NCBI GenBank assembly: GCA_020725525.1
Contig: DYEX01000155.1
Location: 4,328-68,327 of the forward strand
Length of the DNA stretch: 64,000 nt
Source: Desulfovirgula sp.
GTDB taxonomy: Bacteria > Bacillota > Desulfotomaculia > Desulfotomaculales > Desulfovirgulaceae
Direction of reading: 5' to 3'
The translations under genes were made by a program, and so were the position numbers. Under the pieces are notes generated by a model. It was given only the letters and a program-made list of their open reading frames with translations. It did no database searches and was not told the origin of the DNA. Of the stretch, positions 19,334-43,133 are shown one piece after another; within the stretch, counting starts at the first letter, position 1, and each line of letters opens with the position of its first letter.

Positions 19334-20161
19334 TTAGATCCCGTTACCGGCGTCGAGTTCAGCGTGCGCCCGGGCCACCACCGCCGGGATGGTGCTAAGC
19401 AGTTCCACCTGGTCGGGGGCGCCCCGATCAAAACAAACCAGAAATTCTATATTGCCCTGGGGTCCCTTAATGGGCGAAAAATCAAGACCACGCACACCCC
19501 ACCCCAGCCCCTTGATGACCCGGCACACGGCGGCAATAACTTCCCGGTGTACTGCCGGGTCGCGTACCACTCCCTTTTTACCCACCTTTTCCCGGCCGGC
19601 TTCAAACTGGGGCTTAACAAGTGCTACGCCCAGGGCATCGCCGGTGGTTAGCTCCTGTAACCGGGGTAGTACCTTTTCCAGGGAAATAAAGGAAACATCC
19701 ACCACCGCCATATCGGCCAGACAGGGCAGGTCTTGCGCCTGCAGGTAGCGAATGTTGGTACGCTCCAGAAGTACCACCCGCGGGTCGCAGCGCAATTTCC
19801 AGGCCATCTGACCGTATCCCACATCCACGGCAATAACCAGCCGCGCACCATGCTGCAGGGCACAGTCGGTAAACCCGCCGTGTGATGCGCCTACATCCAG
19901 AACCACCCGGCCCTGAAAGTCCAGATTAAAGCTTTTAATTGCTTTCTCCAGTTTTAATCCACCGCGGCTGACGTAGGGCATGTGGCCGGTAACTTCAATC
20001 CGGCACCGGGAGTCCACCAGCCGGCCGGGCTTATCGACCGGTTTTCCGTCGACCCGTACCTGGCCGGCCATCACTGCAGCCCTGGCCTTTTCCCGGCTGG
20101 CAAACAGGCCCCGTTCCACCAGCAATAAATCCAGGCGTTGCCTGGCCCCGGTCATGGCCAC
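19334..20161 (-). CDS. tlyA: TlyA family RNA methyltransferase (YqxC)
   Basis: S4 domain [39 protein letters not shown]. Confidence 0.95.
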
Positions 20162-22071
20162 TGCACTCCAATTTTCACCTTTGTTTTTGCTCTGCGCGCC
20201 CCCAGGGCGTTTAAAACGGCATTGACCAACCCATCCACGGTCAGGCCACAGCGAGCCAGCAACACAGCCCGGCTACCGTGCTGGATGAATTCATCGGGAA
20301 TGCCCAGACGGATCACCTGGACGTTGCGCAACCCCCTGTCCCCGAGCAATTCCAGTACGGCACTGCCGAATCCTCCCTGCAGGACGTGCTCTTCTACGGT
20401 AACCACCCGCCTGGTGCGCAGGGCGTGGCGGGTAATGCATTCCTCATCCAGCGGTTTGACAAACCGGGCGTTGATCACCGTGGCATAGATGCCCTGCTGT
20501 TCCAGAAGGGAAGCCGCTTCCCCGGCGAGGGAAACCATTGTACCCACGGCCAGAAGGGTGATATCATCCCCTTCCCGGAGCACCCGGGCCTTTCCCACCG
20601 GCAGGGAGAGGATTTCTTCATCCAGAGGGCACCCCGTACCGGCACTGCGGGGATAACGTAAAACCGCCGGTCCCGGATAATCCAGGGCCGTTTTTAACAT
20701 CTGTCGCAGTTCATTTTCGTCCCCAGGGGCCATGATTATGAGGTTGGGGATGGATCTTAAATAAGCAAAATCAAACACGCCGTGATGGGTGGCTCCATCC
20801 TCCCCAACCAGACCTGCCCGGTCAAGGGCAAAGGTTACCGGCAGGTTCTGCAGGCAGACATCGTGGAGCACCTGGTCGTAGGCCCTTTGCAAAAAGGTGG
20901 AATAAATGGCTACTACGGGTTTTAATCCCCCCGCCGCCAGGCCCGCGCCCAGGGTAACGGCGTGCTGTTCGGCAATACCAACATCATAGAACCGCTCAGG
21001 AAAGGCGTCGGCAAAATGATCCAAACCGGTACCGGAAGGCATGGCCGCAGTAATGGCCACGATGCGCTTGTCCCGGCGGCCGAGTTCCACCAGGGTGCGC
21101 CCAAAAACCTCCGTATAAGAGGGTGGCTGCCCCGGTTTTTTGATTATCTCACCGGTTTCAATTTCAAAGGGACCAACGCCGTGAAATTTATCGGCATTTT
21201 TCTCTGCCGGCGGATAACCCCGTCCCTTGCGTGTAAGCACATGTATCAGTACGGGCCCCCTGGTGGCTTTGGCCTGCTGGAAGACATTGATCATGGCCTG
21301 TATATTGTGCCCGTCAATGGGTCCCAGGTAGATAAATCCCAGTTCCTCAAAGAACATCCCGGGTACCACCAGGTATTTCAGGGAATCCTTTACCCGCTCC
21401 ACCACCTTAACTACCCGGGGACCAATGGCTGGAATGCGCTTTAAAAGCTGTTCCAGCTCCTCCTTGCCTTTCGAATACATGGGATCGGTACGGAGACGGC
21501 CAAGGTATTTGGCCAGTCCTCCCACATTAGGGGCAATGGACATCTCGTTGTCATTTAAGACCACTATTAAACTGGTCTTATGGTGGCCGGCATGGTTTAA
21601 AGCCTCAAAGGCCATCCCGCCGGTCATCGCCCCGTCCCCAATTACGGCCACCACGGAGTGATTTTCGCCCCTTAAGTCCCGGGCCAGGGCCAAACCTAAA
21701 GCGGCGGAAATGGAAGTGCTGCTATGACCGGTGCCGAAGGCATCGTGCTCGCTTTCCTGGGGTCTGGGAAAACCGCTGATGCCGCCAAACTGCCGCAGGG
21801 TGTGAAAATACGGCCGGCGACCGGTAATTAACTTGTGTACATAGCACTGATGGCCTACATCCCAGATAATTTTATCCCGGGGAGTTTGAAAAACCCGGTG
21901 TAAAGCCAGGGTAAGTTCTACCACCCCCAGATTGGGGGCGAGATGGCCACCGTTTTTAGACACCGTTTCGATAATCTCCTGCCGGATTTCGGCAGCCAGC
22001 TGCTTTAAGGCGGCCATATCCAGTGAGCGGAGATCCGCCGGAGAATTAATTGTCGAAAGCAAGTCTCCCAT
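20152..22071 (-). CDS. dxs: 1-deoxy-D-xylulose-5-phosphate synthase
   Basis: [52 protein letters not shown]. Confidence 0.98.
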
Positions 22072-22100: not shown

Positions 22101-22703
22101 TTATTTCCCTGCCGGACGGTGCTTTTTCCCAGTTAAACTGATCCCCGTCAGCTGTTCAAAGGCAGCCATTACTTTCCCCACCAGAAAAATTACGTCATTA
22201 GCCCGGGAAATGGCTATGCGCTTGCCGGCTGCCTTACCACCTACCGTAAAGGCAGCAATGAGAGCAGTTACCATCATATTCAACAAGACCTGGCTGATAC
22301 CCTTCCAATAAAGTAAGATTTGCAGAACCAGGGCAATTCCCAGAGCACCGCTTACGGTTCCGGCAATGTCACCGATAACATCGTTACAGATATTGGCCAC
22401 CCGGTCGGCATTCCGGATGAGGAATACCCCTTGCTTTGCTCCACGCACCCGTTTGGCCGCTCTGGCATGGAAGGGGGACTCTTGAGCAGCCGCCACTGCG
22501 GTACCTACGATATCGGCCAGAATACCGGTCAGTATAATTATAATTAAAAAGAGAAAAGATAAAAAAAGACTTTTGACCTTGCTGGCAAGCAATTCAGAAA
22601 ACCAAAAAAATATTACGGCCAGTAGAAAAGAGGCCGTACCCACCCCAAAGACGTACCGGGGGGAAACTGTGGACTTATTGTTACCCAAATACAGCCACCT
22701 CAT
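22101..22703 (-). CDS. oapA: OLE RNA-associated membrane protein OapA (DUF21/CNNM-like)
   Basis: About 200 aa, 4 TM, DIVGTAV...ESPFHARAAKRVRGA and NICNDVIGDIAGTVSGA motifs; directly downstream of OLE RNA and upstream of dxs. Confidence 0.85.
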   Translation of the reverse strand: MRWLYLGNNKSTVSPRYVFGVGTASFLLAVIFFWFSELLASKVKSLFLSFLFLIIIILTGILADIVGTAVAAAQESPFHARAAKRVRGAKQGVFLIRNADRVANICNDVIGDIAGTVSGALGIALVLQILLYWKGISQVLLNMMVTALIAAFTVGGKAAGKRIAISRANDVIFLVGKVMAAFEQLTGISLTGKKHRPAGK

Positions 22704-22734
22704 TCGGGAAGGAAAAATAGTTTATGTAATTAAA

Positions 22735-23333
22735 GGGATAAGTGACAGCAGCGCGGGTAAATATTGTGGCTTAAGGTCCAGCAGGTTTTCCCAAGCAGTC
22801 ACCGGCTGTCGCCAGACCGGCGGTTTCCCCTTCGGACTGCTTCCGGGACGTTGCCGGTCCCGGGGCTGGATTACCACTTAGTCCACACTGCAATCCCCGC
22901 GCTGCCCCGGTTTTACCGGACAGCCTAGGAGTTTTCCCCGACAGGATAGCCTTTTTCTAGCCTCTTTTGCAGTAACGGTTTCAGCCCACCGGTTACCTTC
23001 CCCTGGGCCCATTGGGGATACTTTACCGGCCATAAACGGCATCCACCGCTACCACTCAAGGCAGGCTACACTGCACGCAGCTTTCACCACATGCAGGTTC
23101 ACACCCCAAGCCATAGTACGGCTTTTCGCTTTCCCACGCACTTGGGTCTCCGCGGAGTCAGGGTCCACGCCCGCATGCCTTTGCGGCTCGCCCTCACTCC
23201 TTAACTCCCAGTACCAGCCCCCGACTGGGCGTCAGCAGCCAGCACCAGGAACTTCATCGATGTGCCCGCGACGGATTTTTAGGCCCGCCTTCAAAAAAGG
23301 CATACCTGACTAGGATACTGCATCACTTATCCC
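22735..23333 (-). ncRNA. ole: OLE RNA (ornate large extremophilic RNA), about 600 nt
   Basis: Minus strand carries conserved OLE tracts recalled from B. halodurans OLE: UGCAGUAUCCUAGUCAG, GGGCACAUCGAUGAAGUUCCUGGUGCUGGC, GUGCAGUGUAGCCUGCCUUGAGUGGUA, UGCAAAAGAGGCUA, GGAAAACUCCUAGGCUG, GAUUGCAGUGUGGACUAAGUGGUAAUCCAG; closed by an 11-bp terminal stem (22735-22745 with 23323-23333); ispA-OLE-oapA-dxs synteny. Confidence 0.93.
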
Positions 23334-23359
23334 ACTTTCTATTCTATTTCCGGGAGTGT

Positions 23360-23389
23360 ATTATAGCATAAGTTCTAAAGTAAAAGCAA
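23360..23389 (-). promoter_or_regulatory. sigmaA promoter (extended -10) for OLE RNA-oapA
   Basis: TTGCTT-N18-TATAAT with TGc immediately upstream of -10. Confidence 0.7.
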
Positions 23390-23491
23390 ATGATGCTGCT
23401 GACCGCCAGGGTGACCGCCGGTTGGCAGAGGCTCACTGCTGGTACAATGATCGTTCAAGGTCATTGCCACGCGTTAAATCTCCCTCGCGCT

Positions 23492-24382
23492 CTAGAAATC
23501 CCGGGCGATGACAAACCGGGCCAGCTCCCGCAAAAAGTCGGCGCGCTCATCAAAAGGTTCCAGGGCGGCCAGGGCAGCCGCAACCGCTTCCCTGGCCTTC
23601 GCCCTGGCAGCATCCAGCCCGAAAAGAGCCGGATAAGTAGCCTTCTTGTTTCTTGCGTCGCTGCCCACGGGCTTGCCCAGCCTGGCCGGGTCACCCTCTA
23701 CATCCAGGATGTCGTCCTGAATTTGAAAGGCCAGCCCCAGGTTCTCGGCATAGGTAGTAAGGGGCTGGAGCTGACTTTCCGTTGCGCCGGCTAAAATGGC
23801 CCCCGCCCGTACCGCCACCCGGTACAGCGCCCCGGTTTTATGGCGGTGAATGTACTCCAAAGTGGCGGCATCCACCGGAGTGTCTGCAGCCACAGTGTCC
23901 ACCACCTGCCCGCCAATCAGACCCAGCGTACCGGCAGCCGCCGCTACCTCCTCAATGACCTGCACCACCCGTTCCGCCGGTGCCAGCTGGTTTTGGGCAT
24001 TTTTGGCCAGAAGAACAAAGGCATGGGTTAGCAGGGCGTCCCCCGCCAGGATGGCTACCGCTTCACCATAAACCCTGTGACAGGTCGGCTTTCCCCGCCG
24101 GAAATCATCGTTATCCATGGCCGGCAGGTCGTCATGGATCAGGGAGTAGGTATGGATCAGTTCCAGGGCACAGGCCGCCGGCAATACCCGGCCAGGGTCG
24201 CCGCCTACCGTTTCGGCCGCGGCCAGGGTAAGTACGGGCCGCAGCCGTTTCCCGCCGGCAAAAAGGCTGTACCGCATGGCCTGGTGAATCACGGGCGGAT
24301 AGGTATCTTCAGTCGGCAAAAGCTCATCCAGCGCCCGGTCCACCAGGGCCGCCCTGGCTTTCAGTTCAGTCAAAAAGTCCAA
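23492..24382 (-). CDS. ispA: Geranylgeranyl/farnesyl diphosphate synthase
   Basis: GGKRLRP, HTYSLIHDDLPAMDNDDFRRGKPT, GDALL, GQVVD, KTGAL, FQIQDDILD. Confidence 0.96.
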   Translation of the reverse strand: MDFLTELKARAALVDRALDELLPTEDTYPPVIHQAMRYSLFAGGKRLRPVLTLAAAETVGGDPGRVLPAACALELIHTYSLIHDDLPAMDNDDFRRGKPTCHRVYGEAVAILAGDALLTHAFVLLAKNAQNQLAPAERVVQVIEEVAAAAGTLGLIGGQVVDTVAADTPVDAATLEYIHRHKTGALYRVAVRAGAILAGATESQLQPLTTYAENLGLAFQIQDDILDVEGDPARLGKPVGSDARNKKATYPALFGLDAARAKAREAVAAALAALEPFDERADFLRELARFVIARDF

Positions 24383-27511: not shown

Positions 27512-28720
27512 TTACTCTTCTATGGATCCCTCTACCTGACAGAAAAGACGGCCGCGATATAGCTCTACCTGTACCTTCTCCCCCGGTGCAACCTCCCCGG
27601 CCCGCCGCACCACCTCACCGGTGTCCGGACGGGTACAAATGCTGTACCCCCGGGCAAGGGTGGCCAATGGACTCAAAGCCTGTAGCCGTCCGGACAGCAG
27701 GGCCAGGCGGCTTTGCTGGTGCAGGCGGTATTGCTCCATGGCCCGGCTCAAGCGGCGGTACAGATCGTCCACCATTTGTCCCCGGAAACCACAGAGAACA
27801 TCCACCGGGTAGCGGAATACCCTGCTCTGACGGCAGGCATCCAGCCTTGCCCGGCAGGTTTGCAGTTTTTCCCGTATGGCCCGCAACAGGCGCCCTTCCA
27901 AAAGCCCCAGGTACCGGGCCATTTCCTCCCGAACCGGGACCACCATTTCCGCCGCCGCCGAAGGGGTGGGAGCCCGCACATCCGCAACCCAGTCGGCAAT
28001 GGTAAAATCGGTTTCATGGCCGACGGCCGAAATTACCGGGATATCGGAAGCAAAAATGCTCCGGGCCACCACTTCGGTGTTAAAGGCCCACAATTCCTCC
28101 AGGGACCCACCACCGCGGCCGACAATGATCACATCGCAGGCCCTCAGGCGGTTCAGCCAGTACAGTGCCCGGGCCACCTCCCGGGGGGCACTTTCCCCCT
28201 GCACCGGCACGGGCACAAAAACAATCTGCAGGCCCGGCCAGCGCCGGCGGATTATTTTAACCATATCCCGCAGTACCGCTCCAGTGGGCGAAGTAACGAT
28301 GCCGATGCGGCGGGGTAAAAGGGGCAGCTTTTTTTTATGTTGCGGTGCAAACAGGCCCTCTTTTTCCAGTTTTTGCTTCAACTGTTCAAAGGCCAGATAA
28401 AGGGCACCCGTGCCCTCGGGTTCCATCTCTTCCACATATAGCTGGTATGTACCGTCCCGGGGGTAAACCGATACGTAGCCCCGCACACGCACGGCCATCC
28501 CGTCTTCCGGTTGAAAAAGGAGACGGCGCCCCCGGGAACGAAACATTATTGCCTTAATGGAACAGAACTCATCCTTCAGGGTAAAGTAAAGGTGACCGCT
28601 GGCCGCCTGTTTACAGTTGGAAATCTCTCCTTTTACCCAGAGGTTCAGCAAAAGCGGGTCGTTATCCAGAAGGTTTTTGATGTGGCCGGTAAGTTCGCTT
28701 ACGGTAAGCAACTTGAGCAT
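27512..28720 (-). CDS. xseA: Exodeoxyribonuclease VII large subunit
   Basis: WVKGEISN, SGHLYFTLKD, GIVTSPTGA, GRGGGSLEELWAFN, SAVGHETD, RAPTPSAAAE. Confidence 0.96.
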   Translation of the reverse strand: MLKLLTVSELTGHIKNLLDNDPLLLNLWVKGEISNCKQAASGHLYFTLKDEFCSIKAIMFRSRGRRLLFQPEDGMAVRVRGYVSVYPRDGTYQLYVEEMEPEGTGALYLAFEQLKQKLEKEGLFAPQHKKKLPLLPRRIGIVTSPTGAVLRDMVKIIRRRWPGLQIVFVPVPVQGESAPREVARALYWLNRLRACDVIIVGRGGGSLEELWAFNTEVVARSIFASDIPVISAVGHETDFTIADWVADVRAPTPSAAAEMVVPVREEMARYLGLLEGRLLRAIREKLQTCRARLDACRQSRVFRYPVDVLCGFRGQMVDDLYRRLSRAMEQYRLHQQSRLALLSGRLQALSPLATLARGYSICTRPDTGEVVRRAGEVAPGEKVQVELYRGRLFCQVEGSIEE

Positions 28721-32673: not shown

Positions 32674-33078
32674 CTAACGGACCCGGTGCTCTTCCTCTTT
32701 ACCCTCCTGGCTGAAGGCTACTCCCTGGATATTGACATTAACTTCGACCACCGAAAGGCCGGTCATGGACTCAATGGCCTTTTTGACATTTTCCTGGATT
32801 TGAAGTGCCACATCGGGAATGCGAATGCCGTATTCCACGATGACAAATAAGTCTACCGCCGCTTCTTTCTCTCCTACCTCCACTTTCACACCTTTGGACA
32901 AATTCTTGCGGCCCAGCATTTCGGCTATGCCGCCTACCACCCCACCGCTCATTCCGGCTACTCCCGGAACTTCAGTGGCCGCCAGGCCGGCAATGACCCG
33001 CACCACTTCATCGGCAATCCGGATGGAACCCAAACTGGTTTGCTCTTCCCGTACCACCACTTCCTTATTTTCCATCAT
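32674..33078 (-). CDS. Asp23/Gls24 family protein
   Basis: GSIRIADEVV, ATEVPGV, GVKVEVG, IVEYGIRIPDVA, VKKAIESMTGL. Confidence 0.93.
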   Translation of the reverse strand: MMENKEVVVREEQTSLGSIRIADEVVRVIAGLAATEVPGVAGMSGGVVGGIAEMLGRKNLSKGVKVEVGEKEAAVDLFVIVEYGIRIPDVALQIQENVKKAIESMTGLSVVEVNVNIQGVAFSQEGKEEEHRVR

Positions 33079-33157
33079 TAAATAAACCTCCCCGTGCTTG
33101 TCATATTTTGCCTCCATGCCCTCCATTATATCAGAACCCCGGGACGTGTGCAACCAA

Positions 33158-36683: not shown

Positions 36684-37055
36684 CTAGCTACATAGCAATC
36701 GCAATAAATGTTCAGGAAAGGTGGCCCGGGGATGTCTTGCTGCCAGGCGCCGCAGGCGCACCACTGCCGTGGCCACATCCAGTTCCTGGGGGCAACACCG
36801 GCTACACCGCCGGCAGCCGATACACGCCCAGAGAAAACGGGAAGTTAGCACTTCATCCAGCCGGCCGAGTTGCAATAGACGCAGCACGCGGGCAGGCGAC
36901 AGGTCCCGGATACGGGCAAGGCAGGCTCCACCACACCGTCCGCAGTTGGCGCAACTGCGGGCAGTACGAATAGTAACCGGATCAAGTCGTTCCAGATCCT
37001 GGAGAGTTATTTCCCTGAAGGGACGATCCTCATGCATGGGGATAACCTCCGGCAT
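36684..37055 (-). CDS. HdrC-like 4Fe-4S dicluster protein
   Basis: CANCGRCGGAC and LWACIGCRRCSRCCPQELDV; SPARVLRLLQLG typical of HdrC. Confidence 0.75.
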   Translation of the reverse strand: MPEVIPMHEDRPFREITLQDLERLDPVTIRTARSCANCGRCGGACLARIRDLSPARVLRLLQLGRLDEVLTSRFLWACIGCRRCSRCCPQELDVATAVVRLRRLAARHPRATFPEHLLRLLCS

Positions 37056-37059
37056 AAAT

Positions 37060-39387
37060 TCATTCTTTAAAAGGATTGGGACCTAATTCTTGAAGCTGCT
37101 TTACAAATCTTTTTATTGCTGCCACCAGGCTCTGTCCGTCCTCAATACCGGCAGTAAGCACCTGCACCCGCTCGGGTTCCACCAGCATGCGCTGCAAGGT
37201 TTCCCGCAAGTTGTTGACCCGGGATTCGGCCAGGGATGTACCCCGCCCGTAATGGCACTCCGTAGTACGGCAACCTACCACCAGTACACCGTCTATCCCG
37301 CTGAGCAGCGCATCATTGATCCAGCCTGCATTCACCGCTCCGGCACAGGGAACCCTGACCGCCAGTATATTAGCCCCATAGCTGGTCCCCCGGGTGCCGG
37401 CCAGATCCAGCGCCGGGTAAGCATCGTTGGCACATAAGAAAGCCAGTACGCAAGGTTGCTCATCCATGCTGCCCGTATCCACCGCTTCTATAAGTCCGGC
37501 CATCTCCCGGGAACTGAATCCCGGCAGGTAAATACATCTCAGGGGACATCCCCCCTGACAGATACCACATCCACGGCAGGCCAGTGGATTTACCGCCGGA
37601 TAACCGCCTGTATCAAAGCTGCAGGCACCGTAGGGACATTCCTCTACACAGCGCCCGCACCGGTCGCACTTGTGCCGCTCCACTACCGGTGGAACTACCA
37701 CAGACTGGTTCTGGATGGTAGCCAGACATTCCGCTGCTGCAGCCAGAGCGCTTTTGACGCTTGTACTCACATCCATCGGTTCCTGAGCACAACCGGCCAC
37801 ATAAATACCCGCACGCCGCACCTCCATGGGCGAACAGGGCAGGTGACCGGTAATGAAGCCGGTTGTGTCCTTTTCCAGGCGCTCAAAAGCCGGGACGGCA
37901 CAGGGTACCATACCGGTGGCCAGTACCACCAGTTCGGCCCGTACCGCTACCCGTGAGCCACTTAAGGTATCATCAGCCGTGACGACCAGTTCTTCTGCCC
38001 CAGGGTCCCATTCCACTGCATAGGGGTTACCCCGGATAAAAACTGCACCGTGTTCTTCCCGTGTCCGGCGGTACAGTTCTTCCAGGTTGCCCGGAGTACG
38101 GATGTCCATGTAAAAGACAAAAATGCCGGCCTCCGGCGCCACCGCCCGTACGTAATCAATTTGCTTTAATGTGGCCGCACAGCATACACTGGAACAATAA
38201 GCCAGGTGCTGTTTATCACGGCTGCCGGCACACTGGATAAAGGCCACCCGCCTTACGGGCTTTTTATCGTGAGGCCGGATTAACTGGCCACCGGTTGGTC
38301 CGTCCGGACGGGCCAGAACCTCCAAGTCCATGCTGGTAATTACTCCAGGCAAACGCCCGTAGCCGTAATTGTTAATCCGTCCGGCATCGTAAGGTTCCCA
38401 ACCCGCAGCCAGAATGATCGCGTCCACACCAATGCTCAGCCTGTCTTCCTCCTGGTCCAGGTCAATGGCCCCGGCCGGACAGACTTCCACACACCGGCTG
38501 CAGGATTTACCACGACAAAACACACGGTTGACGGCATAGTTAAGAGGATAGGGAAATAACCCCGGGCCTTCAATGGCCCGCTGCCTGCCCGGTGGCAATG
38601 CTGCGGAGGGTGCTACCTCCACCGGGCAAACCTCAAGGCAAGCACCGCACCCGGTGCAGGCATCCTTGACGTAACGGGGTTGTTTTAAAAGTTCCACCAT
38701 AAAGTTACCGGCGGTACCACGCACACCGGTTACCTCGGTCAAGGTGTGCACCGTTACCCTTCCCGTAGCCAGCAAACGCGCCATCAGTACCTCCAACCCA
38801 CACCGGGGTGAGCAAAAGCGCGGGTAATAGCGGTGCAACCGGGCCACCTTACCTCCCAGGAAAGGGGATTTTTCTACCAGCGTTACGTTAACCCCGGCCC
38901 GGGCCAGATTCTCTGCTGCGGTTAGTCCGGCAATACCTCCCCCGACTACCAGTACAGACCGGGAAGTTGAAGAACTAACCGGTTCAAAGGATTCTGCCGG
39001 GCTCAACCGCCCCACGGCCATTTTGAGTAGATTCCGGGCCTTTGCCATCGCCAGCGCCGGCTGGTCCCGGTGGGCCCTGGTGCACTGTTCCCTGAGGTTA
39101 CAGCGTTCCAGGAAGTGTTCGTTCAAGCCTGCCTGCCGTGCAAGACGAAGAAAGGTATCCCGGTGTACGGCTGGTGAGCATGCTCCAACCACTACCCGGT
39201 CTACACGCCCCTGGCGCACATCCTCAGCAATTATTTCCAGGCCGTCAGCGCTACATAACGCAGGATAATGGATGCTGGCAGCAACCCCGCGCCATTTGCC
39301 TGCCTGCTGGGATAATTTCTCCAGGTCAAGAATTTTACCAATTTCACCGTAACAATGACACAGGTAGACACCGATTTTTGGCGGCAC
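37060..39387 (-). CDS. HdrA/Qmo-like flavoprotein with ferredoxin and MvhD domains
   Basis: KIGVYLCHC, VGACSP, NLREQC; VGGGIAG FAD site; IQCAGSRD...YCSSVCC; C-terminal 2x CxxCxxC and MvhD (FLCANDAY, RVPCAG, GCRTTECHY). Confidence 0.88.
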   Translation of the reverse strand: MPPKIGVYLCHCYGEIGKILDLEKLSQQAGKWRGVAASIHYPALCSADGLEIIAEDVRQGRVDRVVVGACSPAVHRDTFLRLARQAGLNEHFLERCNLREQCTRAHRDQPALAMAKARNLLKMAVGRLSPAESFEPVSSSTSRSVLVVGGGIAGLTAAENLARAGVNVTLVEKSPFLGGKVARLHRYYPRFCSPRCGLEVLMARLLATGRVTVHTLTEVTGVRGTAGNFMVELLKQPRYVKDACTGCGACLEVCPVEVAPSAALPPGRQRAIEGPGLFPYPLNYAVNRVFCRGKSCSRCVEVCPAGAIDLDQEEDRLSIGVDAIILAAGWEPYDAGRINNYGYGRLPGVITSMDLEVLARPDGPTGGQLIRPHDKKPVRRVAFIQCAGSRDKQHLAYCSSVCCAATLKQIDYVRAVAPEAGIFVFYMDIRTPGNLEELYRRTREEHGAVFIRGNPYAVEWDPGAEELVVTADDTLSGSRVAVRAELVVLATGMVPCAVPAFERLEKDTTGFITGHLPCSPMEVRRAGIYVAGCAQEPMDVSTSVKSALAAAAECLATIQNQSVVVPPVVERHKCDRCGRCVEECPYGACSFDTGGYPAVNPLACRGCGICQGGCPLRCIYLPGFSSREMAGLIEAVDTGSMDEQPCVLAFLCANDAYPALDLAGTRGTSYGANILAVRVPCAGAVNAGWINDALLSGIDGVLVVGCRTTECHYGRGTSLAESRVNNLRETLQRMLVEPERVQVLTAGIEDGQSLVAAIKRFVKQLQELGPNPFKE

Positions 39388-39446
39388 TGTGTTCCCCCCC
39401 CCTGAAAACACCGGGGGCCGGCAACGGGCCGCCGGCCCCTAAATTC

Positions 39447-39770
39447 TTAGTCATTCCTGTTTTTAAAGGTGAAGCGTTCTACCTTACCGTGAATATCCAC
39501 AACAGTCCAGCTGATTTTATTGCTTCCAACCAGCGGAATAAGCTTGGCCGGGTAATAACCCAACTGGTAAGGTAGACGGGTTTCAATGGCTCCGTTGGGG
39601 CAGGCTTTCACGCAGGACATACAATCCCAGCAGTCCCGTGCCGAACGGCAATATGCCTTTCCATTATTTTCATCCAGAGCCATCAAATCCCCAGGGCATA
39701 TTTGTACACAAAGGGCTTCGCTTTCAGCACGGCAACCGTCACATTTTTGGAGATTAACCTTTGGCGGCAC
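39447..39770 (-). CDS. aprB: Adenylylsulfate reductase beta-like ferredoxin subunit (short form)
   Basis: KCDGC...CVQICPGDLM, DCWDCMSCVKACP...IETRLPY; adjacent to aprA-like gene. Confidence 0.85.
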   Translation of the reverse strand: MPPKVNLQKCDGCRAESEALCVQICPGDLMALDENNGKAYCRSARDCWDCMSCVKACPNGAIETRLPYQLGYYPAKLIPLVGSNKISWTVVDIHGKVERFTFKNRND

Positions 39771-39793
39771 CAGTAATCAACCTCCTGTCAGAA

Positions 39794-41551
39794 TTATGGC
39801 CGGTAACGATCTCCAGGGATTATCTGTTCGTATGGCCTGGTAAATACTTCTATCTCGCCGGTTTGCGGGTTACGCCGGGAGTTGACGAAGCAATCGAAAC
39901 GGGTATCATCCCGCTCGGGGAAGTCCACCCTGTTCTGCCAGCCCGGCCAGCGGGTTTCCTCACGGAACAACAGGTGATGTACCAGCACTTCCGCTACATC
40001 CAGCCGGTCAATTATTTCATGAGCTTCCATTAGCTCGTGTAAATCGTGGGCTACAAGATACCTGGTTTGATCCTTCAAAATAGCCAGGTGTTTCAGGGCA
40101 TATTCCAGTCTTTCCCGGTTCATCCGGTAAAACTGGTGCACACCACCTGCATATTCGTCCATAAGCCGCTGGAGGCGTTCCTCCATTTCCCGCGGGATAA
40201 CACCATCCCCTTCCCGAACCTGCCTGATGGCCGGCGCATAAACCCGCGCCTTTTCCGCTGCCACAAGAGACTCATCCACCTGACCCCTGTCTGCCAGGGA
40301 TCCCAGGTATTCGATAGCCCCCCGGGCCGCCAGCATTCCTTCGGCAGCACAACCGCCGACAAACTTGTTCGGTACCCCACCGGCCACATCGCCGCAGGCA
40401 AAAAGACCGGGCAGGGTGGTAGCACGCTTAACATCAATCCAGTACCCGCTGGCCGTATGGCCTCCCACGATGTAGGGGTCGCTACCGTAGACCTCAATGG
40501 GCTCCCTGGTAATGTCCTGACCGCGGGCAGCCAGGAAGAGTACAAAGCTGGGACGCTCATTCAAATAATCTATTTTCAGGGTCTTGACCTGTTCCGGAGT
40601 CATATGACGGGTATCCACATAACAGGGACCCCTGCCGGCCAGCCATTCTTCCATCGGTGCGTTGGCCCGCACGAAACGAGGAGAAGCGTCACCGCCCATG
40701 TGAGCATACCGTTTGGCTAAAATTTTCTCCCCTTTGGCGTTAATCATAGGCGCTTTATAACCTACCGAAATGGTGTCAATGGGCCCGTTAAAATCCTTAG
40801 TACGCACAGCGCACCAGCGCATCTCGAAGGTGGTCATTTCCGCACCGGCCCGAATACCCATGGCATAACCGGTACCCACGTTAAAGGGGCAATACCAGAT
40901 CTGGTGGTGGCTATCAACGCCATCGTTGGTATAGGGTTTATATAGCCCGGCTGCTCCTCCGGTGGCCACAATGGTCGCTCCGGCTTTAATAATATAGAAC
41001 TTGCCGTCCCGGACACCAAACCCCATGGCGCCGATAACGCGGTCACCATCGAGGAGATAATTGGTGGCCACCACCCGGTTTAAAACTTCGCAGCCGTATT
41101 CCCGCACCTTCTCGGCCAGGATCACCTTCATCTCTGAACCCTGGATGGCAATATCCCAGCGCCCCCGGGCCAGGTATTCCCCGTTTTCGTCCTTTTTAAT
41201 GGGCAGGCCCCACTCTTCCCATTCTTCAATGGCCTGATTTAAAAGTTCGGCCATGGTAATGGTCAGGTCTTCCCGCAGGAGACCTCCTGCCTGGGCGCGG
41301 CTCCAGCGAACCAGGTTTTCCACGGTTTCGTTTTTCTTAATGTAAGTATTGATGGCATCCATGCCTGAGGCCAGGCAGCCGCTGCGATCGATGTGGGCTT
41401 TTTCCATCAGGGTGACCCGCAGATCGGGACGACGGCGCTTGGCCTCAATGGCAGCATAGCAGCCGGCGTTACCGGCACCGATAATCAAAATGTCAGTCTC
41501 AAGCCTTACCTCTCCCACCTCTTCAAGTTTCGCAGGCAGTTTTGCAGCCAT
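39794..41551 (-). CDS. aprA: Adenylylsulfate reductase alpha-like flavoprotein (divergent lineage)
   Basis: IIGAGNAG, RSGCLASGMDAIN, IWYCPFN, VRTKDFNGP, VGGH, LFACGD, REETRWPG. Confidence 0.85.
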   Translation of the reverse strand: MAAKLPAKLEEVGEVRLETDILIIGAGNAGCYAAIEAKRRRPDLRVTLMEKAHIDRSGCLASGMDAINTYIKKNETVENLVRWSRAQAGGLLREDLTITMAELLNQAIEEWEEWGLPIKKDENGEYLARGRWDIAIQGSEMKVILAEKVREYGCEVLNRVVATNYLLDGDRVIGAMGFGVRDGKFYIIKAGATIVATGGAAGLYKPYTNDGVDSHHQIWYCPFNVGTGYAMGIRAGAEMTTFEMRWCAVRTKDFNGPIDTISVGYKAPMINAKGEKILAKRYAHMGGDASPRFVRANAPMEEWLAGRGPCYVDTRHMTPEQVKTLKIDYLNERPSFVLFLAARGQDITREPIEVYGSDPYIVGGHTASGYWIDVKRATTLPGLFACGDVAGGVPNKFVGGCAAEGMLAARGAIEYLGSLADRGQVDESLVAAEKARVYAPAIRQVREGDGVIPREMEERLQRLMDEYAGGVHQFYRMNRERLEYALKHLAILKDQTRYLVAHDLHELMEAHEIIDRLDVAEVLVHHLLFREETRWPGWQNRVDFPERDDTRFDCFVNSRRNPQTGEIEVFTRPYEQIIPGDRYRP

Positions 41552-41624
41552 ATTCTAAAACCTCCCCAAATCAATCTTTATTTGATAACTCCTTACAACT
41601 AACTGAACTTAAACCCGGGTTTCA

Positions 41625-43133
41625 TCACCTCCATGTGACATACCCGCCCCAAACGGGTAAGCCGTTAACAGCATACCAGGGCATCATAACCAGCACAAAG
41701 TAAAGGAGAGTTGCCACCATGATCGGTATTCCTACTCTGGCGTAGGTCTTCGTGTCAAAAGTTCCCGTCCCGTAAGCAATCACACAGGCGGTTACCTGAG
41801 TGGGAACAAGGAAGGAGAAGGTGTCAAAATTCGCCACCAGCAAAGTAAAGGCTACCGGGTTTAAGTTAAGTACCCTGGACAGGGATATCAGTATCGGCGC
41901 CAGCATGGATACCGCAGCCACGTTGCTGAGCATAAATATCCTGACAAATGCGGTGAGCACGATGAAACCGACCACGATAACCAGGAAATGCTGTCCTTTA
42001 AAGTACATTCCGGCATACCCGGCAATCCACTCCGAAAGACCCGTAGCACTGATTGCGCTGGCCAAAGATAGTGCTCCGGCCAACAAAAGCCACGTTCCCC
42101 AAATGGTTTTGTTCTGTAACGTTTTCCATGGAGTGGGCAGCAACCCGGGTATAAAGAAAATTCCCAGGGCAATTAAGGTGGCCAGGCCTGTCTTTATCTT
42201 GTGCTGTGGTTCTGTGATCCAGAGCAGAACCGCAACAGCAAAGATTGCCAGTACAAGCCATTCTATAAAGCTCATTTTACCCATGTTTTTCTTCTCACAC
42301 TGAATGAAATCAGTTCCGCCGGGCACTGAGATTCCGCCCACATTCAACTGCTTCCTTATGATCAGAAACATAACAGGGAGCAGGCCTATAATCGGCCAGT
42401 GCAACCAGAACCACCTGGCATAATTTAACTGATACCCCAGCTCTTTTTCGAATAGACCGGCCATTATCACGTTGGGCATGTGGGCAGTGAGAAGCAGAAT
42501 TCCACCAACCATGGGGAAATAACACAGACCCGTTATAGCCAGTGCTCCCCTGGCCCTCCTGCCTTCAGGGGTTTCTTCAAACAATTCCATGATGCCCTTG
42601 ACAATGGGCAGGAGCACAGCCGACCTGGAAACCGCCGCCGGGATGATCAAGCTTAAAGCAATATTTACAGCCATTAACCCTTTGATCACCTGGTCAACGC
42701 GCGGCTTAACCCTGCTCAGTACGGCCAGGGCAATCCTTCTATCGAGACCGGTGCTCTGCATGATGGCGGCAAAAATGAAGGAACCCAGAACCAAAAAGGA
42801 TACGTCCTGACTAAAACCCCCAAAGGCCTGGGGAATTTTTTTCTGAGCACCAGTTAACACCAAAAGGAGCGGAATGAGCAGTCCCGTCACTCCAACCGGC
42901 ATTGCTTCGGTAATCCACATAATGACGGCCCAGACGGCTACCGCAGCCGCTGCCAATCCCGCAGGCTTTAACCCCGGCGGAACGGGTAAGGAAAGAATGA
43001 TGAAAAAGGCGATCCACGCTGCCACAAAACCAGGAAAAGCCGTGTTTGGATCCAGTCCTGCCTTTCTGGCATTCTCGACCATAAATCCGGGTACGAACCG
43101 TATGTACCACTTCAGATCGCCATTACCCCGCAT
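41625..43133 (-). CDS. DASS/SLC13 family anion permease
   Basis: MWITEAMPVGVT, TGLDRRIA, IIPAAVSRSA, TAHMPN, MLSNVAA, VPTQVTA, many TM segments. Confidence 0.88.
   Translation of the reverse strand: MRGNGDLKWYIRFVPGFMVENARKAGLDPNTAFPGFVAAWIAFFIILSLPVPPGLKPAGLAAAAVAVWAVIMWITEAMPVGVTGLLIPLLLVLTGAQKKIPQAFGGFSQDVSFLVLGSFIFAAIMQSTGLDRRIALAVLSRVKPRVDQVIKGLMAVNIALSLIIPAAVSRSAVLLPIVKGIMELFEETPEGRRARGALAITGLCYFPMVGGILLLTAHMPNVIMAGLFEKELGYQLNYARWFWLHWPIIGLLPVMFLIIRKQLNVGGISVPGGTDFIQCEKKNMGKMSFIEWLVLAIFAVAVLLWITEPQHKIKTGLATLIALGIFFIPGLLPTPWKTLQNKTIWGTWLLLAGALSLASAISATGLSEWIAGYAGMYFKGQHFLVIVVGFIVLTAFVRIFMLSNVAAVSMLAPILISLSRVLNLNPVAFTLLVANFDTFSFLVPTQVTACVIAYGTGTFDTKTYARVGIPIMVATLLYFVLVMMPWYAVNGLPVWGGYVTWR

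Follow-up and report, generated by a model that had tools for sequence, protein, structure and literature searches.

What is encoded in an interval of DNA, positions 22735 to 23333, in which no protein gene is recognized, and does the product have ends and a promoter of its own? The original prediction, made for this interval of the 64,000-nucleotide stretch that was analysed (the window), was of a hidden OLE RNA, a member of a class of large, structured non-coding RNAs known from anaerobic Firmicutes. As far as identity and gene architecture are concerned, it was concluded with high confidence that the interval is occupied by a full-length ole gene of a Desulfofundulus-like spore-forming anaerobe, located on the minus strand within the canonical ispA–ole–oapA–dxs cluster. 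All elements of the prediction, for which no strand had been stated, were present, every one of them on the minus strand.

Identity and extent of the ole gene

The whole 64 kb was scanned against Rfam. The OLE model RF01071 was matched at 23342..22726 on the minus strand with 523.1 bits (gathering score 50) and was the sole gathering-level match in the window. The alignment is not truncated, and this end-to-end match bears out both the proposed OLE identity and the conserved OLE tracts that had been noticed in the sequence. All helices of the model were aligned and large deletions were absent, which identifies the full-length form (P7, P8, P9) and not variant 1 or 2 (PMC11332333). Open reading frames wholly within 22735–23333 reach at most 54 amino acids, in agreement with the claim that the interval lacks a credible ORF; a 102-residue plus-strand ORF (22573–22881) overlaps the 3′ end of OLE and is antisense to oapA and OLE. 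The extent of the gene and its RNA, the G+C content of which is 58%, is as follows.

22726..23342, minus strand: full-length RF01071 match, model positions 1–616 of 616 (E = 1.5e-150)
22735..23333, minus strand: predicted mature OLE RNA of 599 nt, bounded by the two outermost bases of P1 (Rfam alignment; RNA-seq contigs of a relative)

The interval originally proposed is exactly this P1-to-P1 RNA.

The closest relatives of the OapA protein encoded next to ole are from Desulfofundulus species (83–89% identity); those of Desulfotomaculum copahuensis and Desulfovirgula come next. The genes spo0A, spoIVB and spoIIIA are present in the window, and the host fits the range of OLE (anaerobic or extremophilic Bacillota); its lineage is probably thermophilic.

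For comparison, 120 genomic loci (L001–L120) were fetched by means of a 16-mer conserved in OLE, GGGCACATCGATGAAG. An OLE gene was detected with nhmmer in 88 of them, from Bacilli, Clostridia, Syntrophomonadaceae, Symbiobacterium and others. The remaining 32, mostly non-Bacillota (Proteobacteria, Acidobacteriota, Bacteroidota and others), were chance matches without OLE, so the 16-mer alone is not diagnostic. On one 2,334-nt contig (L117) of a metagenome-assembled genome labelled Fibrobacter sp., nhmmer reported an OLE match at 1902–2334 (187 bits); this is probably a binning artefact of a non-Bacillota assembly, the explanation suggested by Fernando and Breaker for their own 24 non-Bacillota OLE hits.

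The ends of the RNA had been predicted to be joined by an 11-bp stem. Positions 22735–22745 and 23323–23333 form a perfect 11/11 inverted repeat (plus-strand arms GGGATAAGTGA and TCACTTATCCC), which gives two arms in the sense of the RNA.

23323..23333, minus strand: P1 5′ arm, GGGAUAAGUGA (inverted repeat; covariation)
22735..22745, minus strand: P1 3′ arm, UCACUUAUCCC (inverted repeat; covariation)

A lone 11-mer repeat within 900 nt is just mildly unlikely; what places the stem beyond chance is its location at both ends of the model together with covariation across other species. In 73 full-length OLE copies the bases before the conserved GCAGUAU pair with bases about 11 nt past the conserved UUUAC, the mean energy of the end duplex being −17.7 kcal/mol for cognate ends and −10.9 kcal/mol for ends combined across species (Mann–Whitney p = 4e-26). 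Covariation was scored in an alignment without gaps, made from 59 of the 69 copies having long flanks; the ten omitted were near-duplicates, copies with 1 nt more in the spacer and two in which the stem is weak or fits poorly. In these 59 OLE genes the 12 proposed pairs of P1 were paired at a rate of 78.5% (62.3% in shuffles) and 11 of the 12 changed on both sides. The covariation score was 0.515, compared with 0.224 for shuffled alignments, and was reached by none of 500 shuffles; six slid registers all scored between 0.13 and 0.22. Within the genus, pairing is maintained via G–U changes. By this comparative evidence the predicted terminal stem stands; it is more than a chance repeat and is the helix already described as P1. 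Wallace et al. (2012) use this name, and the 5′ RACE ends of OLE from H. halodurans map to the start of the helix (PMC3413148).

oapA and the gene neighbourhood

The gene immediately downstream had been named oapA in the original prediction. It and the neighbours most closely concerned are listed in the order in which they are discussed.

22101..22688, minus strand: oapA, 195 amino acids, TTG start, CNNM-like membrane protein with a DxxxD motif, D103–D107 (synteny, homology, motif, fold model)
22689..22734, minus strand: P1–oapA spacer, 46 nt, terminator-free, with the Shine–Dalgarno sequence GAGGUG 7 nt before the TTG (terminator scan, sequence)
23492..24382, minus strand: ispA (farnesyl diphosphate synthase), upstream neighbour of ole (Pfam, NCBIfam)
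20152..22071, minus strand: dxs, beginning 29 nt past the oapA stop codon (Pfam, NCBIfam)
27512–28720, minus strand: xseA (Pfam, NCBIfam)

At 67 of 70 diverse OLE loci the next gene after OLE, in the same orientation, encodes a homologue of OapA (35–57% identity); none of the 32 OLE-free loci that had been fetched has one. At the three exceptions (L012, L037 and L093) at least 700 nt of downstream sequence contain no OapA homologue directly after OLE; L093 has one further off. The DxxxD motif, which distinguishes OapA (PMC11332333), is D103-V-I-G-D107 in the window protein, and both aspartates are invariant in 22 homologues. No match to OapA was obtained in Pfam, NCBIfam or the PDB sequences, even at an E value of 10 or with a profile of 22 sequences, nor did the Pfam CNNM family match OapA at an E value of 10; OapA was identified through synteny, motif and fold alone.

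An AlphaFold2 model of OapA (pLDDT 70.8) is all-helical, with long helices at residues 10–37, 41–67, 94–127 and 133–161. In a Foldseek search the six best PDB matches were MtCorB, an archaeal CNNM protein (PDB entries 7M1T and 7M1U), and the membrane domain of CorC (7CFG and 7CFF), with probabilities of 0.72–1.0, TM scores of 0.40–0.55 and weak E values of 0.02–1.2. The predicted model thus resembles the membrane domains of CNNM/CorB proteins, with four long helices and without the cytosolic domains. The likeness to MpfA, CorB and CorC, CNNM-family Mg2+ transporters, consists in these six matches to the MtCorB/CorC membrane domain; OapA differs from them in its length of 195 residues, in lacking CBS-pair and CorC domains and in carrying DxxxD. 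The fold matches of the window protein reproduce the relation between OapA and MpfA that has been published for OapA of H. halodurans (PMC11332333). The earlier assignment of the downstream gene as oapA is supported by its conserved position and homology as well as by the aspartate motif and the CNNM-like fold of the model.

The start codon of oapA is most likely, from comparison of the sequences, the TTG at 22688, which gives 195 residues as in all homologues. A 200-residue reading from an ATG (22101..22703) was considered and rejected: the window has ATG AGG TGG where the relatives have ATG AGG TGA, a stop codon. Gene prediction that favours ATG starts would make oapA five codons too long (22689–22703).

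Together with dxs, oapA is probably part of one operon. The order of genes on the minus strand is xseA, folD, fchA, mnmL/ytqA, xseB, ispA, ole, oapA, dxs, tlyA, nadK, mnmM, argR, recN, spoIVB, spo0A; nusB, a DUF2273 gene and two Asp23 genes lie further upstream. In other genomes ole typically clusters with ispA, dxs, xseA/B, tlyA, nadK, argR, recN, folD, nusB and yqhY (Asp23) (PMC12265935), and the gene order around ole in the window is this canonical one. Neither a KOW domain (OapB/YbzG, about 100 residues) nor an L7Ae domain (OapC/YbxF, about 80 residues) was present among the 18 small ORFs scanned in the 64-kb window, which also contains no tRNA genes. The genes oapB and oapC are normally located elsewhere in the genome; from the literature a genome of this kind would be expected to encode both and to lack mpfA.

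Apart from these genes, a redox cluster was observed at 36684–43133 on the minus strand. It comprises a 783-residue HdrA-like flavoprotein whose C-terminal domain is of the MvhD/FlpD type, a pair of small 4Fe–4S proteins, a 585-residue flavoprotein resembling fumarate reductase and AprA, and a symporter of the Na+/sulfate type; a regulator of the Crp family comes next. The cluster fits a sulfate-reducing host.

Promoter, transcripts and alternative readings

A TGnTATAAT promoter upstream of the RNA had also been predicted. The spacer between ispA and ole contains the following elements.

23360..23368, minus strand: extended −10 element TGCTATAAT, hexamer 23365..23360 (kept in relatives; same type in other OLE loci)
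23384..23389, minus strand: −35-like hexamer TTGCTT, 18-nt spacer to the −10 (read from the sequence; TTTG(C) invariant in relatives)
23334..23359, minus strand: −10-to-P1 gap, 26 nt, indel-variable in length in relatives (start site inferred)
23396..23428, minus strand: conserved hairpin CUGCCAACC-N15-GGUCAGCAG, between the ispA stop codon and the −35 (compensatory changes; folding z-score −1.7)

The spacer of the window was compared with those of six Desulfofundulus-type loci fetched via their OapA proteins. CTTATGyTATAAT and the TTTG(C) of the −35 are invariant in the six relatives' loci, within a spacer that as a whole is 65% identical. A box of the TGnTATAAT type, counted if at least five of the six hexamer positions agreed and its end lay 0–45 nt upstream of P1, was found in 53 of 69 diverse OLE loci; with shuffled upstream sequences the count averaged 3.5 and peaked at 9, and none of the 69 loci has such a box within the 54 nt that follow P1. 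Judged by this conservation the predicted promoter holds, and ole genes in general carry a putative dedicated promoter of the extended −10 type. In agreement with this, the proximal promoter of H. halodurans has a more than 100-fold effect on OLE expression (PMC3413148).

It might be argued instead that a dedicated promoter is absent, that OLE is obtained only by processing of an xseB–ispA–ole–oapA–dxs transcript and that TGCTATAAT is incidental. The H. halodurans cluster has been reported to be polycistronic (PMC12265935), the −35 is weak (TTGCTT matches TTGACA at only three of six positions), exact TGNTATAAT sites number two in the 64 kb against 0.92 expected, a count that by itself is not above chance, and a terminator scan of the minus strand called nothing canonical in the ispA–ole spacer. 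We nevertheless consider this reading improbable, given the invariance of the box and the −35 in an otherwise divergent spacer, the excess of such boxes near P1 over shuffles, the H. halodurans promoter effect and the depth of OLE relative to ispA in a relative (described below). A dedicated promoter remains the preferred explanation, to which read-through from ispA may add a contribution because no strong terminator lies between ispA and ole.

Taken over the different lineages, the median gap from the box to P1 is about 11 nt, and the 26 nt of the window lie at the long end of the distribution. With a gap of this length the primary 5′ end cannot equal the mature end; transcription would start at about 23350–23354 and produce a leader of about 17–21 nt that needs trimming. 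A second −10-like box, TAGAAT (23346..23341), 7 nt before P1, was rejected as a conserved promoter, as it is absent in the relatives and the segment is indel-variable. Had it held, it would have explained a 5′ end at G23333 without processing.

The stem of the upstream hairpin is kept by compensatory changes in the relatives (UUGUUAACC/GGUUAGCAG in L122 and CUGCCAAC/GUUGGCAG in L126). It was not called as a terminator in the scan and folds marginally better than shuffles; from its sequence it could be a weak terminator or the site of a regulator. Pairing of this hairpin (23428–23396) with internal OLE segments, suggested by two inverted repeats (I1 and I2) and large duplex energies, was rejected: shuffled upstream sequence equals these energies, so the complementarity is attributed to chance in a G+C-rich RNA.

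The other exact TGNTATAAT site of the window lies at 33125–33133 on the minus strand, just past accC and 20 nt inside the 5′ end of a 159-residue Asp23 ORF (32674–33153). The Asp23 domain of this ORF begins at residue 41, so its true start is probably further downstream, and the site may, on its sequence, be the promoter of the asp23–DUF2273–nusB group.

Public RNA-seq runs were searched for the sequence of the window organism itself; none contained it, the best share of sampled words being 0.43. The transcript data are assembled contigs, not reads, from relatives about 92–95% identical, and contig depth is only a rough guide to expression. In run X18 (organism I, about 92% identical over OLE) a 611-nt contig with a depth of 87.8 covers exactly the equivalent of 22735..23334, and the contigs of ispA and oapA have a depth of about 5, that of OLE being about 16 times higher. 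In this contig the Illumina adapter GATCGGAAG is fused exactly at the first P1 base (window 23334); many cDNA fragments must therefore end there, which marks a discrete 5′ end. The 5′ end at the start of P1 is the same as that mapped by 5′ RACE in H. halodurans (PMC3413148), here in a relative of the window organism. Runs X19 and X20 yielded OLE contigs with depths of 29 and 34; the former stops at the equivalent of window position 23338, and the alignment of the latter reaches only 23316. Both extend 65–70 nt beyond the 3′ arm of P1 into the spacer before the relative's oapA, with a loose end that matches L122. As these contigs continue past P1 and no terminator follows OLE, the 3′ end is not sharply defined. 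A second organism (run X9) gave a 538-nt OLE contig. In the relatives, OLE is expressed far above the flanking genes, its 5′ end is at P1 and some transcripts run into oapA.

Contigs that reach the start of oapA, and a 46-nt spacer without a terminator, would also be expected if OLE worked chiefly in cis, controlling oapA–dxs as a structured 5′ leader of very large size, and were not a free stable RNA. This is very unlikely, since the depth of OLE exceeds that of oapA about 16-fold in the same run, one contig ends exactly at P1, P1 encloses the RNA as expected for a stand-alone molecule, and OLE of H. halodurans is an exceptionally stable, single-band RNA that works with OapA as a ribonucleoprotein (RNP) (PMC3413148). 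That the gene is a decaying or non-functional relic can be dismissed almost entirely: nothing specific speaks for it beyond a few non-canonical pairs marked in the P7–P9 region of the Rfam alignment, and against it stand the very high bit score across the full model, the intact P1, promoter and oapA, the P1 pairing that the relatives retain through G–U changes and the expression of the orthologues. A functional, separately accumulating OLE RNA is thus retained as the preferred reading.

Relation to known OLE systems and proposed mechanism

The window locus is a textbook copy of an OLE gene and contains nothing beyond the published description of the class. It shares with Halalkalibacterium (Bacillus) halodurans C-125 the RNA family RF01071, the closure by P1, the proximal extended −10 promoter, the oapA gene directly downstream and the ispA/dxs/xse/argR/recN neighbourhood; it differs in belonging to a thermophilic-type sulfate-reducer lineage, in its higher G+C content and in the greater distance of the promoter from P1, and in nothing else. 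The own promoter, the P1-bounded ends and the adjacency of oapA had already been published for H. halodurans (PMC3413148, PMC12265935), and publications likewise cover the genes around ole and the resemblance of OapA to CNNM proteins. The full-length architecture is also that of OLE from Clostridium acetobutylicum and C. botulinum, for which dimers have been determined by cryo-EM (PMC12286853; PDB entry 9LCR, cited in PMC12265935). Two internal features can be related to these systems.

23005..23010, minus strand: GGGCCC palindrome in a hairpin loop for which the Rfam consensus reads uGGCCa (Rfam alignment)
22843..22863, minus strand: hairpin CCGGGACCG-GCAA-CGUCCCGG, capped by a GNRA tetraloop and containing a single bulged C (sequence reading)

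The cryo-EM dimer contains a GGCC palindrome in its L9.3 kissing loop (PMC12286853). The GGGCCC loop of the window (23010..23005) would occupy the kissing-loop position and correspond to L9.3, an equivalence given by the Rfam alignment only. The hairpin at 22863–22843 is a candidate for the OapB site, which has been described as a GNRA hairpin in P13 (PMC7936274).

The following course of events is proposed. Transcription would start at the extended −10 promoter, about 17–21 nt before P1, perhaps supplemented by read-through from ispA, and would continue through ole into oapA and dxs. Nucleases would then trim the transcript to P1, with P1 protecting the ends, to leave a stable RNA of about 599 nt. 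In some other stable RNAs the 5′ and 3′ ends are joined in a terminal helix and the mature ends lie at the base of that helix; OLE differs in that its P1 is only 11–13 bp long, and the analogy is a lead only.

By analogy with the literature on H. halodurans and on the Clostridium cryo-EM structures, which covers OapA, OapB and OapC, the OLE dimer and the membrane model (PMC12265935, PMC12286853, PMC7936274, PMC9723947), the RNA would dimerize, the GGGCCC loop being compatible with the L9.3 kissing contact. Dimers of OapA, two proteins to each RNA, would anchor it in the membrane; OapB (YbzG) would bind the RNA at the GNRA hairpin of P13, and OapC (YbxF) would bind it at a kink-turn. OapA would represent a bare CNNM/MpfA-type divalent-cation transport module without the cytosolic CBS and CorC regulatory domains, and the OLE RNA would supply the regulatory or sensing part that OapA lacks. 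As judged from the literature, the RNP would adjust the responses to Mg2+ and to membrane stress and help the cell to tolerate excess Mg2+, cold, alcohol or poor carbon sources. The role of OLE RNA as the regulatory domain of a CNNM-like transporter, as put forward by the Breaker laboratory, is regarded as the most likely mechanism, as a hypothesis held with much lower confidence than the identity of the gene.

A further possibility, which we put forward tentatively and think rather less likely than its opposite, concerns maturation. In the Desulfofundulus-type lineage the distance from the predicted promoter to P1 exceeds that of most other lineages by about 15 nt, yet the RNA of a relative starts at P1; removal of the leader at the foot of P1 might then be obligatory and precise, with P1 acting as a determinant of processing and stability, and the hairpin at 23428..23396 could set the balance between autonomous and read-through transcription of ole–oapA.

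A GTDB census has recorded 2,822 OLE genes in Bacillota (PMC11332333). The window copy adds little to these, being one more among the catalogued OLE genes and detectable by any Rfam scan. Its recognition corrects the annotation, in which an 800-nt 'empty' gap from ispA to a 'hypothetical protein' becomes ole plus oapA. The cross-species counts (the covariation of P1, the −10 box in 53 of 69 loci and the adjacency of oapA in 67 of 70) quantify features that had earlier been shown experimentally in one species. An orthologue from a probable thermophile lineage could suit structural work on the OLE–OapA complex and, if they are real, removal of a leader at P1 or control by the upstream hairpin would provide a handle on the little-studied maturation and regulation of OLE.
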